A stretch of DNA of 64,000 nucleotides from a bacterium ADurb.Bin212. GTDB lineage: Bacteria; Patescibacteriota; UBA1384; XYA2-FULL-43-10. Within the stretch, counting starts at the first letter, position 1. The number at the start of each line of letters is the position of its first letter. The position numbers and the translations under genes were made by a program. Under the pieces are notes generated by a model. The model made no database searches. It was not told the DNA's origin and saw nothing but the letters and a program-made list of their open reading frames with translations. The stretch is taken from NCBI GenBank assembly GCA_002070055.1, contig MWCM01000002.1, forward strand, positions 286-64,285, given 5' to 3'. Shown here in pieces: positions 4,874 to 11,065 of this stretch.

Positions 4874-5018
4874 TATTATTTCAAAAATCAAATATCAAAA
4901 ATAAAAAAGAATTACTAAATAGTATTTAAGCTATTGCAACAAAGGCGTTGTTTACTAAGCAGTTTCACATTTCATTATTCGTTATACAAAATTATTTGTT
5001 GATAATGGAAAAATTACA

Positions 5019-5237
5019 ATGGAGTATACACTAAAAATTTTTCAAATTATTCTGGCCCTTTTGATGGTCGTTGCAATTTTGTTGCAACAAAAAGGTAGCG
5101 GATTGGGGATCGCTTTTGGCGGAGATAGCAATTTTTATCGCTCCAGAAGAGGCCTCGAAAATGTATTACACTGGGCTACAATAATTATTGCCTTTTTCTT
5201 TGTGGTTACTGCGGTAGCAGTAGTTTTTGTTTCTTAG
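5019..5237 (+). CDS. secG: Preprotein translocase subunit SecG
   Basis: 72 aa, two TM helices, LLQQKGSGLGIAFGG signature of SecG. Confidence 0.75.
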   Translation: MEYTLKIFQIILALLMVVAILLQQKGSGLGIAFGGDSNFYRSRRGLENVLHWATIIIAFFFVVTAVAVVFVS

Positions 5238-5249
5238 CTTAAAGCTAAT

Positions 5250-6770
5250 ATGAACCCCAAACAACACAAAGTTATAACAGCAATATCTAATTTTTTCAAA
5301 GTTCTGGTTCTGCCTCTTATCAAGATATTTGGAGTGGTGTCATTTTTATTCTCAAGATTGACCAGAAAAGAAAAACTGGTGTTTTTTATCCTATTGTCTA
5401 TCCTTTGTGTGCTGATTATTTTTGAATCTTTAAAGATATATTATGCGAGAACTCAATTGGTTCCTGATTTTGGCGGTGAATATACAGAGGTGATTCAAGG
5501 TGATGCAAAGTACTTCTCACCGATTTTAGCAAAGACAGACTCTGAAAGGGCTATTTCCGGTTTAATTTACTCCTCTTTGATTAAAATAGATGAAAAAAAT
5601 CAACCGATTTCCGATTTGGCTGATTCTTGGCAAATATCTGAGGATGGTCTGACATACACCTTTGTCTTAAAGCAAGGTGTTACATTTCATGGTGGACAGG
5701 CCTTTAGCAGCGATGATATTGTTGCGACGGTCTCGGCCATTCAAGACGAGGCTAATAAAAGCCCTTTAAGGGAGATGTGGTCTGGAGTTGTTGTGAACGC
5801 AATTGATGAGTATACTGTGTCTTTTGTTCTACCCAAGCAATATGGGCCGTTCATTTATAACTGTAACTTTAAGGTTATAAGCAAAGAAGATGTGTTAAGT
5901 ACATTGTCCGCAAACTATAACGGTACGGGTCCCTACAGGTTTGTAAACAATATCACATCTGATGACGGCGGACTTGAAGTAAATTTAGAGTCTTATGGCG
6001 GCTATTATGCTGGTCCGCCCTTGATTAGCAAAATGAAATTTATCATTTCGAGCCAACCAGACGTCAGCGAAAAGCGAATAAAGGATTTAGGAGTGAATGC
6101 AATCTCCTCTGTTGAAAATGTGCAAGTTCCCAACTTCCTCGATTTTACCTTTACTGCTGGAAGAAATCTGATGTTAATCCCGAATATTAGAAAAGTTCCT
6201 TTTCAAGACGAGGCCACCAGGAAAAAAATTCTAACTGGCGAAAAAGTTGAGGGTGATATTAAGATCCGTTTTGTTTTTTTGGATAATGAGACTCAAAAAC
6301 AAAAAGCCAAAGAGGTTGTATCTATCTTGGAAAAATCCGGGGTGAAAATTGAAAGTGTGGCTCTTTCTGTCCATGATTACGCTGAGTCGCTAAAGAAAAA
6401 GGATTATAATCTATTGCTCTATGGCTACGATTGGTCTTATGATCTTGATCTATATACTTTTTGGCACTCGTCTCAATTGGATAAAAATAATTTTAGCGGC
6501 TATTCAACGAAAGAGGACGATATTTATCTTGAAGACACAAGAATGATTCTAGACGGAGACGAAAGGCAAAAAAGATACAACGATTTTTTAAACAAAATAA
6601 CTGGATTATCGCTGGTTGTTGACTACGGACAAAAAAGATACCCTCTATTTATTTCGGAGAGTGTTAAAAATGTTGAGGTAATTAAGTGTGGCAGACCAGA
6701 AGATCGATTTAATGATATAATTAGCTGGTATATTAACGAGAAGAGGGTCAGGAAAGGTGATAGTGAGTAG
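5250..6770 (+). CDS. ABC transporter substrate-binding protein, family 5 (oligopeptide/dipeptide/nickel-like), N-terminal membrane anchor
   Basis: SBP_bac_5-like N-lobe motifs (SGLIYSSLIKID...LADSWQISEDGLTYTFVLKQGVTFHGG). TM segment after a K-rich N-terminus. Confidence 0.6.
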   Translation: MNPKQHKVITAISNFFKVLVLPLIKIFGVVSFLFSRLTRKEKLVFFILLSILCVLIIFESLKIYYARTQLVPDFGGEYTEVIQGDAKYFSPILAKTDSERAISGLIYSSLIKIDEKNQPISDLADSWQISEDGLTYTFVLKQGVTFHGGQAFSSDDIVATVSAIQDEANKSPLREMWSGVVVNAIDEYTVSFVLPKQYGPFIYNCNFKVISKEDVLSTLSANYNGTGPYRFVNNITSDDGGLEVNLESYGGYYAGPPLISKMKFIISSQPDVSEKRIKDLGVNAISSVENVQVPNFLDFTFTAGRNLMLIPNIRKVPFQDEATRKKILTGEKVEGDIKIRFVFLDNETQKQKAKEVVSILEKSGVKIESVALSVHDYAESLKKKDYNLLLYGYDWSYDLDLYTFWHSSQLDKNNFSGYSTKEDDIYLEDTRMILDGDERQKRYNDFLNKITGLSLVVDYGQKRYPLFISESVKNVEVIKCGRPEDRFNDIISWYINEKRVRKGDSE

Positions 6771-7000: not shown

Positions 7001-7087
7001 GCCGCGGTGTTGGAATTGGTAGACAAGCACGGTTCAGAACCGTGTGCCAGCAATGGCGTGGAGGTTCAAGTCCTCTTCGCGGCACCA
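7001..7087 (+). tRNA. tRNA-Leu (CAG), type II with long variable arm
   Basis: Acceptor gccgcgg/ccgcggc. Anticodon stem cacgg/ccgtg with loop ttCAGaa. Variable hairpin gccagcaatggc. T-arm ggaggttcaagtcctc. CCA encoded. Confidence 0.85.
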
Positions 7088-7154
7088 TCTTTCGCACATC
7101 AAAAAAGTGGGCTACGCTGATGGCACAGCCATCTTGTTTACAAGAAGACATATT

Positions 7155-7709
7155 ATGAAAAAAGTATTTATTATTCACGGTTATCAAGGTTCTCCTAATG
7201 GCGGGTGGCGGCCATGGCTTATGGCGGAACTGGAGAAACTGGATATTTATGCCTGTGCTTTAGCGATGCCGGAACCAGAGCACCCAAGAGTCGGGGATTG
7301 GGTTAGTGAAATCTCCAGACATATTACCAGTGGTGACGAAGTCTGTTTAGTCGGGCACTCTTTGGGAGTGCCTGCTATTTTGAGATATCTTGAGTCGATA
7401 AATGATAAATCTCAACAAAGCATTGCAGGGGCGGTCCTCGTTTCTGGACCTCTGTTATTAGTCGGCCAGAGCGATGTGGATAGTTTTCTGAAAGACGGAT
7501 TTAATTTTTCTAAAATACAGCCATCGTCGAATCAATTCGTTGTAATCCATGGTGACGATGATCCATTAGTGCCTGTGGCTGATGCCTATCAATTATCCAG
7601 TAAACTTCAAACTAAACCGATTATCATAAAGGGTGGCCAACATTTAAACGGTGGTGCCGGCTGGACTAAATTGCCTGAGGTGCTAGAAGCGATAAAAAAG
7701 ATCTTATAA
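7155..7709 (+). CDS. RBBP9/YdeN-like alpha/beta serine hydrolase
   Basis: MKKVFIIHGYQGSPNGGW N-terminus and LVGHSLG nucleophile elbow. The ORF-track start at 7044 runs through the tRNA-Leu gene, so the internal ATG at 7155 was chosen. Confidence 0.65.
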   Translation: MKKVFIIHGYQGSPNGGWRPWLMAELEKLDIYACALAMPEPEHPRVGDWVSEISRHITSGDEVCLVGHSLGVPAILRYLESINDKSQQSIAGAVLVSGPLLLVGQSDVDSFLKDGFNFSKIQPSSNQFVVIHGDDDPLVPVADAYQLSSKLQTKPIIIKGGQHLNGGAGWTKLPEVLEAIKKIL

Positions 7710-7792: not shown

Positions 7793-8113
7793 TTATCTGT
7801 CGTTGCGATTGTATCCACCACCGCCACGATTTTCGTCTCTTTTAACCATAGGTCTGGCTACGTTGACGAAGATTTTTCTACCTTCGAACTCTTTTTCGTT
7901 GAGTTCTTCGATAGCTTTTTCGGCCATCTCTTCAGACTCAACGGTTACGAAACCGAAGCCTTTAGATCTGCCGCTGAATTTGTCGGAGATTACTTTTGCT
8001 TCAACCACTACTACACCTTCTACGCCGGAGAATAGCTCAGAGAGCATCTCGTCGGTAACGCTGTAGTCAAGGTTGCCAACAAAAAGCTTGTTTTTGTTAA
8101 CTTGCTCTTCCAT
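7793..8113 (-). CDS. RRM-type RNA-binding protein with glycine-rich tail
   Basis: RNP-2 LFVGNL and RNP-1 KGFGFVTV motifs, C-terminal RGGGGYNRNDR. RBS AGGA upstream on the minus strand. Confidence 0.85.
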   Translation of the reverse strand: MEEQVNKNKLFVGNLDYSVTDEMLSELFSGVEGVVVVEAKVISDKFSGRSKGFGFVTVESEEMAEKAIEELNEKEFEGRKIFVNVARPMVKRDENRGGGGYNRNDR

Positions 8114-8313
8114 CTTTTTCCTAACTTACTACTAATAAAAAACGACCCAAAAGTTTAACTTCTCGGTCGACTTAACTTAGTTTTTTGTTCTAATTAAATA
8201 CAAACGAGCCTTTAAACTACTAAAATAATATTAGCACGTATAATTATAAATGTCAATGAAAAGCAGTAAATATTTTTATATTTCCCCAATGATTTGTATG
8301 CGAGTGAATTTTT

Positions 8314-8341
8314 TGACCAAATTTATTTGATGTGTTATAGT
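8314..8341 (+). promoter_or_regulatory. Candidate sigma70-type promoter (TTGACC, 16-nt spacer, TATAGT) upstream of tRNA-Val
   Basis: Hexamers read directly from the sequence. It lies about 120 nt upstream of tRNA-Val. An intervening hairpin plus T-run at 8432-8458 makes its role uncertain. Confidence 0.35.
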
Positions 8342-8462
8342 GTTTTTGTCGTGCAAGTCTATTAGTGTAAAATAATTAAACTAGCTTCTTTCCTCTTTTG
8401 ATTGCCAATTAGCACGTATTGGCATTGAATAATCTCGGGCTAGTTCGAGATTTTTTAATTTA

Positions 8463-8539
8463 GGGCGCTTAGCTCAGCTGGTTAGAGCGGCTCGTTTACA
8501 CCGAGTAGGTCGGGGGTTCGAATCCCTCAGCGCCCACCA
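8463..8539 (+). tRNA. tRNA-Val (TAC)
   Basis: gggcgct/agcgccc acceptor. D-arm gctcagctggttagagc. Anticodon stem gctcg/cgagt with loop ttTACac. T-arm gggggttcgaatccctc. CCA encoded. Confidence 0.85.
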
Positions 8540-8623
8540 TACTTTGTATATTACTATGTCGTGTCTTGTTATTTTTTTGAGGATGCGTTCTTCATATGGC
8601 AATAAAGTGGTATACTCTTATCT

Positions 8624-9277
8624 ATGAGTAAACCAAATAGAATTGTTTGGTCTTCAAAGCTGGCATATGCCACAGGGCTAATGGCCACTGATGGTAGTAT
8701 GAGTAATGACGGAAGACATATCGTATTTGTTTCAAAAGATATTGAGCAAATTGAAAACTTTATGAGTTGCTTGGGAGTACAATGTAGAATTTCATTGAAA
8801 ACAAGCGGCTTTAACCACAATAAATACCCATACATACAGTTTAGCAATTCGAAGTATTATAATTGGTTTGAGAAAATTGGGATACACCCGAATAAAACAA
8901 AAACAATTTCTGAAATAAAAATTCCTGATAGATATTTTTTTGATTTTTTGCGTGGTCACTTTGATGGAGATGGGTCATCGTACTCCTATAAAGATCGAAG
9001 ATGGAAAAATAGTTTCATGTATTACATACAATTTGTATCTGCAAGCGAGAATCATCTTTGTTGGATTAGAGACACATTGCATAAAACCTTGAAGATTAAC
9101 GGCAAAGTTAGAAAAGTGGGTAATATATATAGACTATCTTTTGCAAAGTTGAATTCTTATATCATCGTAAATAAAATGTATTCAGATAAAAATTGTATTT
9201 GTTTAAACAGAAAGAAAATAAAGATATTCAATGCGATAAATGCCGCGGTGCTGGAACTGGTAGACAGGCACGCTTGA
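8624..9277 (+). CDS. Free-standing LAGLIDADG-family homing endonuclease, double-motif monomeric type
   Basis: Motif 1 KLAYATGLMATDGSM and motif 2 FDFLRGHFDGDGSSY, about 100 aa apart in an intact 217-aa ORF. The last 36 nt of the ORF overlap the 5' half of tRNA-Leu(GAG). A TGgTATACT extended -10 sits about 12 nt upstream of the ATG, suggesting a leaderless mRNA. Confidence 0.7.
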   Translation: MSKPNRIVWSSKLAYATGLMATDGSMSNDGRHIVFVSKDIEQIENFMSCLGVQCRISLKTSGFNHNKYPYIQFSNSKYYNWFEKIGIHPNKTKTISEIKIPDRYFFDFLRGHFDGDGSSYSYKDRRWKNSFMYYIQFVSASENHLCWIRDTLHKTLKINGKVRKVGNIYRLSFAKLNSYIIVNKMYSDKNCICLNRKKIKIFNAINAAVLELVDRHA

Positions 9278-9327
9278 GGTGCGTGTGTCCAAAAGACGTG
9301 GAGGTTCAAGTCCTCTCCGCGGCACCA
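9242..9327 (+). tRNA. tRNA-Leu (GAG), type II
   Basis: Same acceptor and T-arm as the 7001 copy. Anticodon stem cacgc/gcgtg with loop ttGAGgt. Variable arm tgtccaaaagacg. CCA encoded. Confidence 0.85.
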
Positions 9328-9356
9328 TTTAATCTTATTAACTAGCCATATAGTTT

Positions 9357-9749
9357 ATGACAATTTCAGAAATTTTTTCCAAACAATATCTTTTTGATCC
9401 TGTGCCGCCGTCTGAAAACAGCTATCTATGGTATCAGCTAGCCTTTTTTTCTTTGCTTTTAATAATTGGCATAATAATTACTTTAAGCAAAAAGATTGAT
9501 AAAAAGATTAAAAGTCGTCAGCTATACTGCTATCTGACTTGCGGTATATTGGGTTTGGTTTATCTCTTCTCCAGATACGAACAATTACCGTGGTTGGGAT
9601 CCAGATTATTCTTGGCAGTTGTCCTATTGGTACTGTTAGTTTGGACAACAATAATTACGGTATGGATGACAAGATACACAAAAACCTTGGACAAAGAGAA
9701 GATTTTATCGGAAAGATATAAAAAATATTTACCTAAAAAGAAGAAATAA
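9357..9749 (+). CDS. Hypothetical small membrane protein with lysine-rich C-terminus
   Basis: 130 aa with three hydrophobic segments and a KKYLPKKKK tail. Confidence 0.45.
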   Translation: MTISEIFSKQYLFDPVPPSENSYLWYQLAFFSLLLIIGIIITLSKKIDKKIKSRQLYCYLTCGILGLVYLFSRYEQLPWLGSRLFLAVVLLVLLVWTTIITVWMTRYTKTLDKEKILSERYKKYLPKKKK

Positions 9750-9799
9750 CATTATTATTAATTTAAAACAAAAAAAGATCGTAGAAAGGATATTTTATA

Positions 9800-11065
9800 A
9801 TGACTGAAAACAACGAGATTAAGGAGGAGAAACAGCAGGTTGAGAGCATGGAAAGTCTAATGGCCGAACTTGGGGACAGCCTTTTACCTTTTAAAGAGGG
9901 TGATCTAGTAGAGGCAACCATTTTGGCAGTTGCCGGTAATAGAATTTGGGTTGATGTTGCTGGACAATCATTGGGTTTCATACCGGAAAGGGAGATTACT
10001 AGCAAGTCTGGTCTTAAAAAAGGCGATAAAGTATATGCATCTGTAATTTCAATGGATAGTGAAGAGGGCAATGTTGTGTTGTCTTTGAGGCAAGCTGATC
10101 GTGAAAAGTATTGGTTGGAGATGTCACAGAAATACGAAAGTGGTGAACCGGCCACTATTACTATTACCGATGCCAATAAGGGTGGTTTGATGTCTGAAAT
10201 TGGCGGTATACAGGGTTTCTTGCCGGTATCACAGCTTTCTCCTAAGAACTATCCGAGAGTTGAGGGTGGCAACAAAGATGAAATTCTAAACAGGCTGCGC
10301 CAATTCATTGGGACCGAGGTTTTGGTTAAGGTATTGAATTGTGATAAAGAGGGTGGAAAACTTATTTTCTCTGAGCGTGCAGTAAGCGCAGACGAAGTTA
10401 AAGATAAACTTGAGCAGATTAATATTGGTGATAAACACAAAGGCAAAATTACAGGTATTGTTGACTTTGGCCTATTTGTAAGTTTGGATCCACAGGTTGA
10501 AGGTTTAGTACACATCTCTGAGGTTTCGTGGAGCCGTGTTACAGATTTAAATAAGTTATTCAAAGTCGGTGATGAGATCGAAGCAATGATTATTGGCAAG
10601 GAAGATGGCCGAGTTTCTTTGTCTATTAAAAGACTACAAGACGATCCTTGGGCCGAAGCTGCCAAAAAGTATAATGTTGGTGATGTAATAAGCGGGAAAG
10701 TTACCAAGGTAACACCATTTGGTGCTTTTGTTTCAATTGAGAAGGGTATAGACGGATTGGTTCACATTTCGGAGTTATCAAGCGATCATGTGTCTGACCC
10801 ATCCAAGGTAATTGAGCTTGGTAAAGAATATAAAATGAAGATTATCTCCATTGAGCCATCAAGCCATAGGCTCGGCCTAAGCTTAAAGGAGCTTAACGCT
10901 AGTGTTGCAAAAAACGAAGAAAAGTTACCTGAATCAAAAGATTCAGAGTCAGATATTAAAGAAGCTGATTCCAAGCAAGAGTTAAGTCAGGAACCTGAAA
11001 AGAAGAAATCTAAAACAGTCGCGGCAAAAAAGAGTTCTGGCAAAGATAAGGCTGATAAAAAATAA
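9800..11065 (+). CDS. rpsA: 30S ribosomal protein S1 (four S1 domains) with K-rich C-terminal tail
   Basis: Repeated S1-domain signatures (G.V..V..FGAFV....GL.H.SE). AAGGA RBS before the ATG. Confidence 0.85.
   Translation: MTENNEIKEEKQQVESMESLMAELGDSLLPFKEGDLVEATILAVAGNRIWVDVAGQSLGFIPEREITSKSGLKKGDKVYASVISMDSEEGNVVLSLRQADREKYWLEMSQKYESGEPATITITDANKGGLMSEIGGIQGFLPVSQLSPKNYPRVEGGNKDEILNRLRQFIGTEVLVKVLNCDKEGGKLIFSERAVSADEVKDKLEQINIGDKHKGKITGIVDFGLFVSLDPQVEGLVHISEVSWSRVTDLNKLFKVGDEIEAMIIGKEDGRVSLSIKRLQDDPWAEAAKKYNVGDVISGKVTKVTPFGAFVSIEKGIDGLVHISELSSDHVSDPSKVIELGKEYKMKIISIEPSSHRLGLSLKELNASVAKNEEKLPESKDSESDIKEADSKQELSQEPEKKKSKTVAAKKSSGKDKADKK

Follow-up and report, generated by a model that had tools for sequence, protein, structure and literature searches.

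The stretch of DNA considered here, called the window throughout, comprises 64,000 nucleotides (nt) of the genome of bacterium ADurb.Bin212 (Patescibacteriota; contig MWCM01000002.1, positions 286 to 64,285), and its element of interest is a gene for a LAGLIDADG homing endonuclease that runs into the 5′ half of a tRNA-Leu(GAG) gene. The enzyme is a member of an intron-less, tRNA-gene-resident homing endonuclease family that occurs in many lineages of the candidate phyla radiation (CPR) and of which we found no published description. The loci of this family have a common architecture, are linked to tRNA-Leu(GAG), differ between close relatives by gain and loss of the gene and are phylogenetically discordant with the gene next door. 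We consider it probable, at about 60%, that these enzymes are functional, selfish, free-standing homing endonucleases, almost all of CPR, specialised on the tRNA-Leu(GAG) gene and mobile as a cassette that replaces the 5′ half of this gene. In window coordinates, and all on the forward strand, the locus consists of the following features:

8624 to 9277, forward strand: LAGLIDADG homing endonuclease gene with ATG start, encoding a two-motif monomer of 217 amino acids (open reading frame (ORF), Pfam, fold and alignment).
9242 to 9327, forward strand: complete tRNA-Leu(GAG), the first 36 nt of which double as the last 11 codons and the stop of the ORF (ARAGORN; Rfam tRNA, 47.2 bits).
8605 to 8630, forward strand: putative decayed relic of a tRNA-Leu 5′ half, AGTGGTATACTCTTATCTATGAGT (relic hidden Markov model (HMM); 19-mer shared with locus L189).
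8608 to 8616, forward strand: extended -10-like element TGGTATACT, 7 nt before the ATG (read from the sequence).
9149 to 9177, forward strand: weak promoter-like site TTGAAT-17-TAAAAT inside the 3′ end of the ORF, candidate promoter of the tRNA, 64 nt from it.
8463 to 8539, forward strand: tRNA-Val(TAC), a host gene of the left flank, outside the element (ARAGORN, Rfam).

Judged by its motifs and its predicted fold, the window enzyme is a bona fide LAGLIDADG protein. It matches LAGLIDADG_3 (PF14528) in Pfam with 29.2 bits at a cut-off of 22.5 and contains motif 1, YATGLMATDGS, as well as motif 2, FLRGHFDGDGSS, with the acidic residues D23 and D116; D23/G24 and D114-G117 are without variation in an alignment of 32 family sequences. 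An AlphaFold (AF2) model built on 32 homologues (predicted local distance difference test score 93, predicted template modelling score 0.89) consists of two alpha-beta-beta-alpha-beta-beta-alpha halves, the secondary-structure order expected for such enzymes appearing twice. The closest fold in the PDB is the archaeal intron enzyme I-Tsp061I (2dch; Foldseek E = 2e-11), which is also the closest solved relative by sequence (E = 0.0045, 21% identity), and the top PDB matches are all LAGLIDADG proteins. Purifying selection on the family is strong, with a ratio of non-synonymous to synonymous substitutions (dN/dS) of 0.04–0.12 in the closest enzyme pairs, where dS is unsaturated. The first-pass annotation, which a model had made from the letters of this DNA, described an intact double-motif LAGLIDADG enzyme with an aspartate in both motifs, and in this Pfam, alignment and model agree with it. 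The second-best fold match to the model is WhiA, a bacterial regulator derived from a LAGLIDADG protein. A domesticated regulator of the WhiA type was nevertheless rejected, as the acidic residues are invariant, Pfam finds no helix-turn-helix (HTH) domain and the likeness is one of fold only. An intein-encoded enzyme was rejected as well, since the product stands alone at 217 amino acids and LAGLIDADG_3 is its sole significant Pfam match. No paralogue of the enzyme was found elsewhere in the 64-kb window.

The ORF ends within the tRNA gene, its TGA stop being formed by U33-G34-A35 of the anticodon loop. Between tRNA-Val(TAC) and the ATG lie 84 nt and between the ORF and tRNA-Leu(GAG) 0 nt; with flanks this short there is no space for a ribozyme core. 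An Rfam scan of positions 7800–10000 at E<=10 matched the two tRNAs alone and no intron family, and a group I intron or another structured RNA around the ORF was discarded as a candidate on these grounds. The gene thus stands free, in neither an intron nor an intein, as the first-pass annotation had proposed. Its claim that the end of the ORF is templated by the tRNA 5′ half likewise stands, with the correction that the 36 nt amount to 11 sense codons plus the stop instead of 12 codons.

How widespread is this arrangement? A search of 5.8 billion proteins returned 435 matches, the best 120 of which are 202–251 amino acids long and, save for the exact match, 46–57% identical to the window protein; the named ones among them are from Patescibacteria. 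By exhaustive profile search at E<=1e-30 the family comprises 331 clusters at 50% identity. When each species was represented by one genome, at least 479 loci encoding homologues of about 50% identity were confirmed, in genomes nearly all of which are labelled Patescibacteria/CPR or are unclassified metagenome-assembled genomes (MAGs). The best 80 of these at least 479 loci together with the window make up the set of 81 loci analysed here; the 80 span Saccharibacteria-labelled MAGs, Berkelbacteria, Amesbacteria, Collierbacteria, Levyibacteriota, Peregrinibacteria and others. In 79 of the 81, the next feature downstream is a tRNA-Leu(GAG) on the same strand, which overlaps the ORF or begins at most 18 nt past its stop, the commonest overlap being 36 nt (24 loci), a recurrence of the tie noticed in the window that far exceeds chance. 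The two exceptions are a contig ending 65 nt past the ORF and a tRNA left untyped by ARAGORN. The upstream neighbour in 63 of 80 loci is rplS, the gene of ribosomal protein L19; otherwise it is tRNA-Val(TAC) or tRNA-Leu(CAG), these latter being loci of the Berkelbacteria and Microgenomates type to which the window belongs. L002 and L004 likewise have Val(TAC), the enzyme gene and Leu(GAG) in succession. Because the upstream neighbour varies, the constant partner of the enzyme gene is the tRNA and not the neighbourhood. A metagenome scan with a tRNA pattern, which was blind to the enzyme, found the same layout and full-length copies in all five enzyme-bearing loci that it hit. From their C-terminal peptides, some family members (P0042 and P0020) had been guessed to lie beside other tRNAs; the fetched loci show tRNA-Leu(GAG). 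Over 85 independent assemblies, produced in many different studies, have the same layout, which refutes the notion of an unrelated ORF that abuts the tRNA by chance or by misassembly and leaves it practically no probability.

Upstream of the enzyme genes a second, partial copy of the tRNA can be recognised. When the 130 nt preceding the conserved N-terminus are compared between loci, a recurring motif emerges with the family consensus AATTGGTAKACGCTATNNNCTTGAGGT, which reads as D-loop, 3′ strand of the D-stem, 5′ strand of the anticodon stem and anticodon loop of tRNA-Leu(GAG). An HMM built solely from the tRNA 5′ halves of enzyme-free loci matched, at E<10, 62 of 88 upstream segments of 160 nt as compared with 7 of 81 segments inside the ORF and 2 of 88 shuffled upstream segments, and at E<0.01 24 upstream segments as compared with none inside the ORF and none shuffled, three of these 24 being intact neighbouring tRNA-Leu(CAG) genes. 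Applied to the sequence before enzyme-free tRNAs, it matched only real tRNA-Leu(CAG) genes and one odd fragment (L138). When this HMM is combined with a strict regular expression, the relic is present in 66 of 88 enzyme-bearing loci. The whole 5′ half including the acceptor strand is kept in L005 (GCGGACGTGGCGAAATGGCAGACGCACTATGTTTGAG), L020, L033, L080 and L160, and the acceptor strand is missing in many loci. In L020 and L005 the relic starts with GCCCAGG or GCGGACG as compared with GCGCGGG in the intact tRNA. The similarity between relic and tRNA stops sharply past CTTGAGGT, that is at position 38 of the anticodon loop. The layout of the element is thus relic 5′ half, ORF, complete tRNA, and the end of the relic within the anticodon loop therefore argues for an invasion of the tRNA gene itself with duplication of its 5′ half. 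The first-pass suggestion of a nuclease that had homed next to the tRNA gene or into its upstream edge is favoured as far as homing is concerned; the idea of an isolated insertion at the upstream edge gives way to a widespread family with a relic that ends at position 38. In the window the relic consists of the D-loop 'GTGGTATAC', a remnant of the anticodon stem and the anticodon loop 'CTATGAG', which now holds the ATG. The relic HMM detects it with E = 0.0062 on the 101-nt upstream segment 8540–8640, and the 19-mer GGTATACTNTNTCTATGAG is common to the window and L189, with the ATG at the same place and enzymes that are 37% identical. The window relic would be old and decayed, and the window locus a typical, somewhat decayed member of the family.

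Some further observations concern the same upstream region. At 8569–8590 the window reads 'tatttttttgaggatgcgttc', closely similar to 'gatttttttgaggatgtcttc' upstream of the L161 enzyme gene, and this segment may preserve what is left of an earlier anticodon loop or start codon (TTGAGG+ATG), the current one lying downstream. The enzyme-free L138 contains in its spacer (1497–1791) two direct copies of the first 17 nt of the tRNA, GCGGACGTGGTGGAATT, each with the hairpin cccgctcttcgcgaagagcggg behind it; the copies end just before the D-loop GGTAGAC and may have been left by repeated breakage or belong to a small hairpin element using the same site. A terminator-like hairpin, ccgagttatccactcgg, followed by a T-run lies between rplS and the relic in L018, L022, L014, L043 and L068, about 40–90 nt upstream of the enzyme ATG, and is conserved in the enzyme-bearing loci of one Parcubacteria-like clade. 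Since the enzyme-free relative L096 is devoid of this hairpin, the inserted segment may exceed relic plus ORF.

Promoter-like signals, all of them called as consensus matches, are found at both ends of the enzyme gene. In the window, the extended -10-like TGGTATACT is followed by the ATG with no Shine-Dalgarno sequence in between, and it is probably the promoter of an mRNA that is itself probably leaderless. This 'extended -10' seems to be a reused remnant of the relic D-loop, because the same relic variant recurs in L189. The apparently leaderless layout and the extended -10 had already been noted in the first-pass annotation, the only amendment being a spacing of 7 nt in place of about 12 nt. 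TATACT is found 6–7 nt before the ATG in a group of window-like loci that includes L018, L022 and L068, which again suggests leaderless mRNAs. Of 43 relics with the D-loop sequence YTGGYA, 20 have a -10-like hexamer, mostly TATAAT, at a distance of exactly 18 nt from it on the downstream side, directly after the breakpoint, as compared with 13% of random anchors. At the other end of the gene, 43 of 80 loci have a promoter-like TTGAAA-17-TATAGT/TATAAT within the final ~70 nt of the ORF, as compared with 0–10 of 80 at control offsets; this site overlaps the conserved RKxLKI codons. The enrichment depends on the interval searched for tRNA promoters, being modest for a -10 box 4–14 nt from the tRNA and clear for TTGAAA-17-TATAGT at 3–65 nt. 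As in free-standing, Seg/Mob-like genes, the enzyme genes have promoter-like elements upstream, an intergenic position beside a conserved gene and adjacent tRNA halves that co-vary with the enzyme.

If the gene is mobile, loci without it should exist, and such loci were found in relatives with the same flanks. A metagenome scan with the tRNA 3′ half yielded 120 loci, many of them high in G+C and non-CPR; 31 low-G+C enzyme-free loci were judged CPR-like by shared genes and tRNA order (synteny, BLAST to CPR loci). Among CPR-like tRNA-Leu(GAG) loci on low-G+C contigs, sampled in this way through the tRNA, about 5 of 36 are occupied. The flanking proteins of the enzyme-free L096 are 83–87% identical on the left and 75% identical on the right to those of the carrier L018. 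Similarly, enzyme-free L176 is the counterpart of carriers L068 and L036, L166 that of L038, and L116 and L179 those of L005, L017, L020 and L025, the last six being arranged as Ile(TAT), Val(GAC), two ORFs, [enzyme gene], Leu(GAG), Val(TAC), Phe, Gly. Close relatives that share the flanking genes but not the enzyme gene have no relic either, and in the enzyme-free counterpart loci rplS ends 9–294 nt before the tRNA. L118 has 105 nt from the start of Val(TAC) to that of Leu(GAG) and no intervening enzyme gene, and by its tRNA order this locus reads as the empty form of the window arrangement. L164 has no enzyme ORF in its spacer (5955–6136), which is colinear with the final ~75 nt of the enzyme genes in L018, L022 and L043 and keeps a promoter-like TTGAAT-17-TATAGT; it is a deletion remnant in which the promoter-like site of the tRNA was retained. 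As to the host, rplS followed directly by tRNA-Leu(GAG) is a widespread CPR gene order (L001–L080, and L081–L200 where rplS is present), with a pseudouridine synthase gene and tRNA-Ile(TAT)/tRNA-Val(GAC) often coming before rplS, and as the rplS stop comes as near as 9 nt to the tRNA in enzyme-free loci, co-transcription is suggested.

In addition, the enzyme gene does not follow the history of the gene next door. Over 68 loci, enzyme identity and rplS identity are nearly uncorrelated (Spearman 0.15). Where the rplS of two hosts is at least 90% identical, their enzymes are of 53–87% identity, and conversely L003 and L028 have enzymes 70% identical with rplS only 42% identical. For the correlation of the two tRNA halves with the enzyme rho is 0.29 and 0.35 (Mantel p<=0.001), and for that with rplS it is 0.04 and 0.005, not significant. 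Presence or absence at one precise site together with discordance to rplS is what a homing gene would display, and these data indicate an active, selected nuclease gene that is gained, lost and exchanged together with the tRNA and independently of the gene next door.

How could a carrier escape its own nuclease? Of 31 enzyme-free CPR tRNAs, 14 contain the D-arm motif GG[TC]A[GT]ACGC, as compared with 2 of the 84 linked to an enzyme gene (Fisher p = 6e-8 without phylogenetic correction), the most differentiated columns of the tRNA alignment are both strands of the D-stem, and the relic consensus carries GG[TC]A[GT]ACGC. As a correlation, this contrast fits a target that includes the D-arm and replacement alleles that are resistant; the presumed 'sensitive' enzyme-free allele would contain ...TGGTAGACGCACTACCTTGAGGTGGTAGCGCC.... 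An immunity determinant in the anticodon arm was considered and dropped, as enzyme-linked and enzyme-free tRNAs have stems in common, for example CTACC/GGTAG; the D-stem was the sole region found to differ systematically between the two sets.

Taken together, the most likely course of events would be the following. The element appears to consist, in this order, of a short promoter and start region, the endonuclease ORF and, in the last codons of the ORF, the 5′ part of tRNA-Leu(GAG), the tRNA's own promoter often being carried along with this replacement part. The resident tRNA-Leu(GAG) would be broken on the 3′ side of the anticodon loop at position 38/39, its 5′ half being left upstream as relic, the D-loop and loop-proximal sequence of which would be reused as promoter elements of the enzyme gene. 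In the window, the ORF simply continues into the tRNA as far as U33-G34-A35, which provide its TGA. Since the whole tRNA would be rebuilt downstream, neither an intron nor splicing would be necessary. The enzyme would then cut 'sensitive' tRNA-Leu(GAG) alleles that are free of it, and repair from the carrier copy, with the relic or rplS as left and the tRNA as right homology arm, would import the enzyme gene and the linked tRNA sequence. Carrier tRNAs would evade cutting through compensatory changes in the D-stem, and elements would later be lost through deletion. The most specific version of this proposal, an intron-free colonisation of an essential structural-RNA gene by a cassette of ~0.75 kb with a resistant 5′ half, a promoter in the C-terminal codons, cutting in the D-arm/anticodon arm and a relic recycled as promoter of the enzyme gene, we hold tentatively, at somewhat less than even odds; the relic would here possibly also serve as operator or homology arm.

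Which other explanations have to be considered? The main alternative is a domesticated LAGLIDADG protein, an old, vertically inherited CPR gene that serves the host in some way connected with tRNA-Leu(GAG), be it by binding DNA or RNA, by regulation or by maintaining the locus, the absences being secondary losses. The dN/dS of 0.04–0.12, the length and catalytic residues kept across the phylum, the want of frameshifted copies in the loci sampled, the constant position, the promoter-like tRNA site embedded in the ORF and WhiA as second-best fold match would all suit such a protein. However, an occupancy of about 5 in 36, close relatives with the same flanks and without the gene, the near absence of correlation with rplS and near-identical hosts with enzymes only 53% identical are difficult to reconcile with it, as are the L164 remnant and the two catalytic aspartates, which are invariant, unlike those of WhiA or maturase-only proteins. 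We regard domestication as unlikely, and of the two options left by the first-pass annotation, a mobile homing endonuclease or a domesticated nuclease, the empty syntenic relatives, the one remnant and the discordance with rplS favour the former. Alternatively, a single ancient insertion could have been inherited vertically and recurrently deleted with precision between the direct repeats of the tRNA 5′ half, homing having ceased. Relic and intact 5′ half are indeed direct repeats, between which precise excision would be favoured, enzyme-free loci are usually scarless and the relic has a conserved consensus of its own. Against this speak the discordance with rplS in both directions, including enzymes of 70% identity at 42% rplS identity, the co-variation of the tRNA with the enzyme and not with rplS, and the pair L043 and L036, with rplS 90% identical, of which the former is leaderless and the latter has TATAAT and a leader. 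Moreover, a selfish nuclease that no longer homes would hardly hold a dN/dS of ~0.1, and we consider this scenario improbable.

An enzyme encoded by a group I or other intron of tRNA-Leu, with the upstream relic and the downstream 3′ half as exons, would suit the end of the relic, which lies in the anticodon loop, where group I introns of bacterial tRNAs classically reside. CPR rRNA genes, too, are rich in introns that bear LAGLIDADG genes (PMC11270868). Yet no Rfam intron match exists at E<=10, the ORF fills the interval from relic to tRNA, the downstream tRNA is complete and well-scoring with a 5′ half of its own, and the acceptor strands of the relics often mismatch the downstream 3′ acceptor strand (L020, L005) or are missing. 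An intron origin is thereby largely refuted and very improbable. Several points also weigh against the selfish, mobile cassette that we favour. Every carrier retains a complete tRNA-Leu(GAG) with the whole presumed target; the carriers L022 and L032 share the D-arm with their enzyme-free relative L096; and the D-arm contrast ignores phylogeny and uses an enzyme-free set picked by its T-arm pattern. The gene rplS is short with a variable tail and thus a noisy proxy of host phylogeny. Decayed copies are few, with no frameshifted enzyme copy seen in the loci sampled and a single deletion remnant; this scarcity and the very low dN/dS would also fit a role beneficial to the host. The window relic is marginal when the relic HMM is run over the whole window (E = 7.9), and it was missed by the strict regular expression and by the tRNA-based HMM. 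The origin of the relics by insertion is itself inferred, and their consensus GGTAKACGCTAT is conserved across loci beyond what is expected of neutral relics, so that they would have a present function; the conserved 'TAT' after ACGC and the overall conservation suggest a role as promoter, operator or homology arm.

LAGLIDADG genes are known from introns and insertions of CPR 16S and 23S rRNA genes (PMC11270868; PMC11809585; PMC8172020). These enzymes resemble the window family in superfamily, host phylum, conserved structural-RNA targets and patchy spread, but they reside in group I introns or insertions, whereas the window family is intron-free and sits on a tRNA with a duplicated 5′ half. 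The most thorough survey of CPR rRNA introns never mentions tRNA (PMC11270868). Our literature search found no published tRNA-linked case, the CPR cases found being rRNA introns and insertions. I-Tsp061I (2dch) and I-DmoI are of similar size to the window enzyme and like it single chains with two motifs, but are archaeal, intron-encoded and directed at rRNA. The closest parallels come from other systems. SegB of phage T4, a free-standing GIY-YIG enzyme in the phage tRNA cluster, reportedly cuts the tRNA region of nuclease-free relatives and co-converts flanking tRNA markers, a case attributed to Brok-Volchanskaya and colleagues in 2008. It is likewise free-standing and tRNA-adjacent, and the tRNA of the window family co-varies with its enzyme; it differs in nuclease family, in residing in a phage genome and in having no duplicated tRNA half. 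In fungal mitochondria, mobile endonuclease ORFs such as that at atp6 of Allomyces are said to come with a replacement for the end of the host gene, the Allomyces case being credited to Paquin, Laforest and Lang in 1994. Here, too, an ORF and a substitute terminal segment are present without an intron and the displaced segment is left as a relic, but gene type, end and genome differ, a protein gene, its 3′ end and an organelle standing against a tRNA gene, its 5′ half and a bacterial chromosome. The tRNA-Leu(UAA) of cyanobacteria and plastids contains a group I intron in the anticodon loop, usually without an endonuclease ORF. The insertion point in the anticodon loop of a tRNA-Leu is thus shared, but the intron is a ribozyme usually without an ORF and the window element an ORF without a ribozyme. 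Integrase-type islands and prophages, which are kilobases long and use a tyrosine integrase, enter tRNA genes and restore the 3′ end. As in the window family, the tRNA gene is regenerated from sequence borne by the element; in the cassette of ~0.75 kb a nuclease takes the place of the integrase and the 5′ half that of the 3′ end.

To our knowledge, homing endonucleases are thought to persist in essential genes solely by means of self-splicing introns or inteins. The family described here, with about 331 clusters at 50% identity and at least 479 species-level genomes, appears to manage without either. If confirmed, this would be a third strategy, replacement of a gene fragment in a bacterial RNA gene, and would account for the recurrent 'hypothetical protein' beside CPR tRNA-Leu(GAG). 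Nuclease drive would then move tRNA alleles and promoters horizontally in very small genomes and, if the detailed cassette reading were true, particular tRNA alleles would be driven across many lineages of Patescibacteria. The enzymes would moreover be compact natural meganucleases with probable targets that can be guessed from sequence.

Apart from tRNA-Leu(GAG), other tRNA genes were also seen next to nuclease genes. In L192, a CPR-like metagenome contig with a tRNA-Leu(GAG) at 7213–7298 that lacks an enzyme gene, a homologue of 49% identity (9593–10396) abuts tRNA-Phe(GAA) with an overlap of 7 nt and no obvious tRNA-Phe relic upstream; it may be a retargeted copy. A distant family member in L204 (442–1326) starts 45 nt after tRNA-Leu(CAA), and the N-terminal 'extension' of the called ORF is this tRNA read through. 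On the high-G+C and probably non-CPR contig L205, a distant enzyme with an HTH-like N-terminal extension (1465–2484) ends ~90 nt before tRNA-Leu(CAA). The enzymes beside tRNA-Leu(CAA) and tRNA-Phe hint at a wider class of tRNA-gene-homing nucleases. About 1.3 kb downstream of the enzyme/tRNA cluster of L201, an ORF with a weak Pfam match to an HNH domain (5018–5524) overlaps tRNA-Leu(TAA) on the minus strand and may be another tRNA-associated nuclease gene. For annotation in general, gene callers run the ORFs of this family into or even across tRNA genes. A further example of an ORF call that extends into a tRNA is the alpha/beta-hydrolase-like ORF at 7044–7709 of the window, which is listed from a GTG inside tRNA-Leu(CAG) (7001–7087) and the true start of which is probably the internal MKKVFIIHGYQG.

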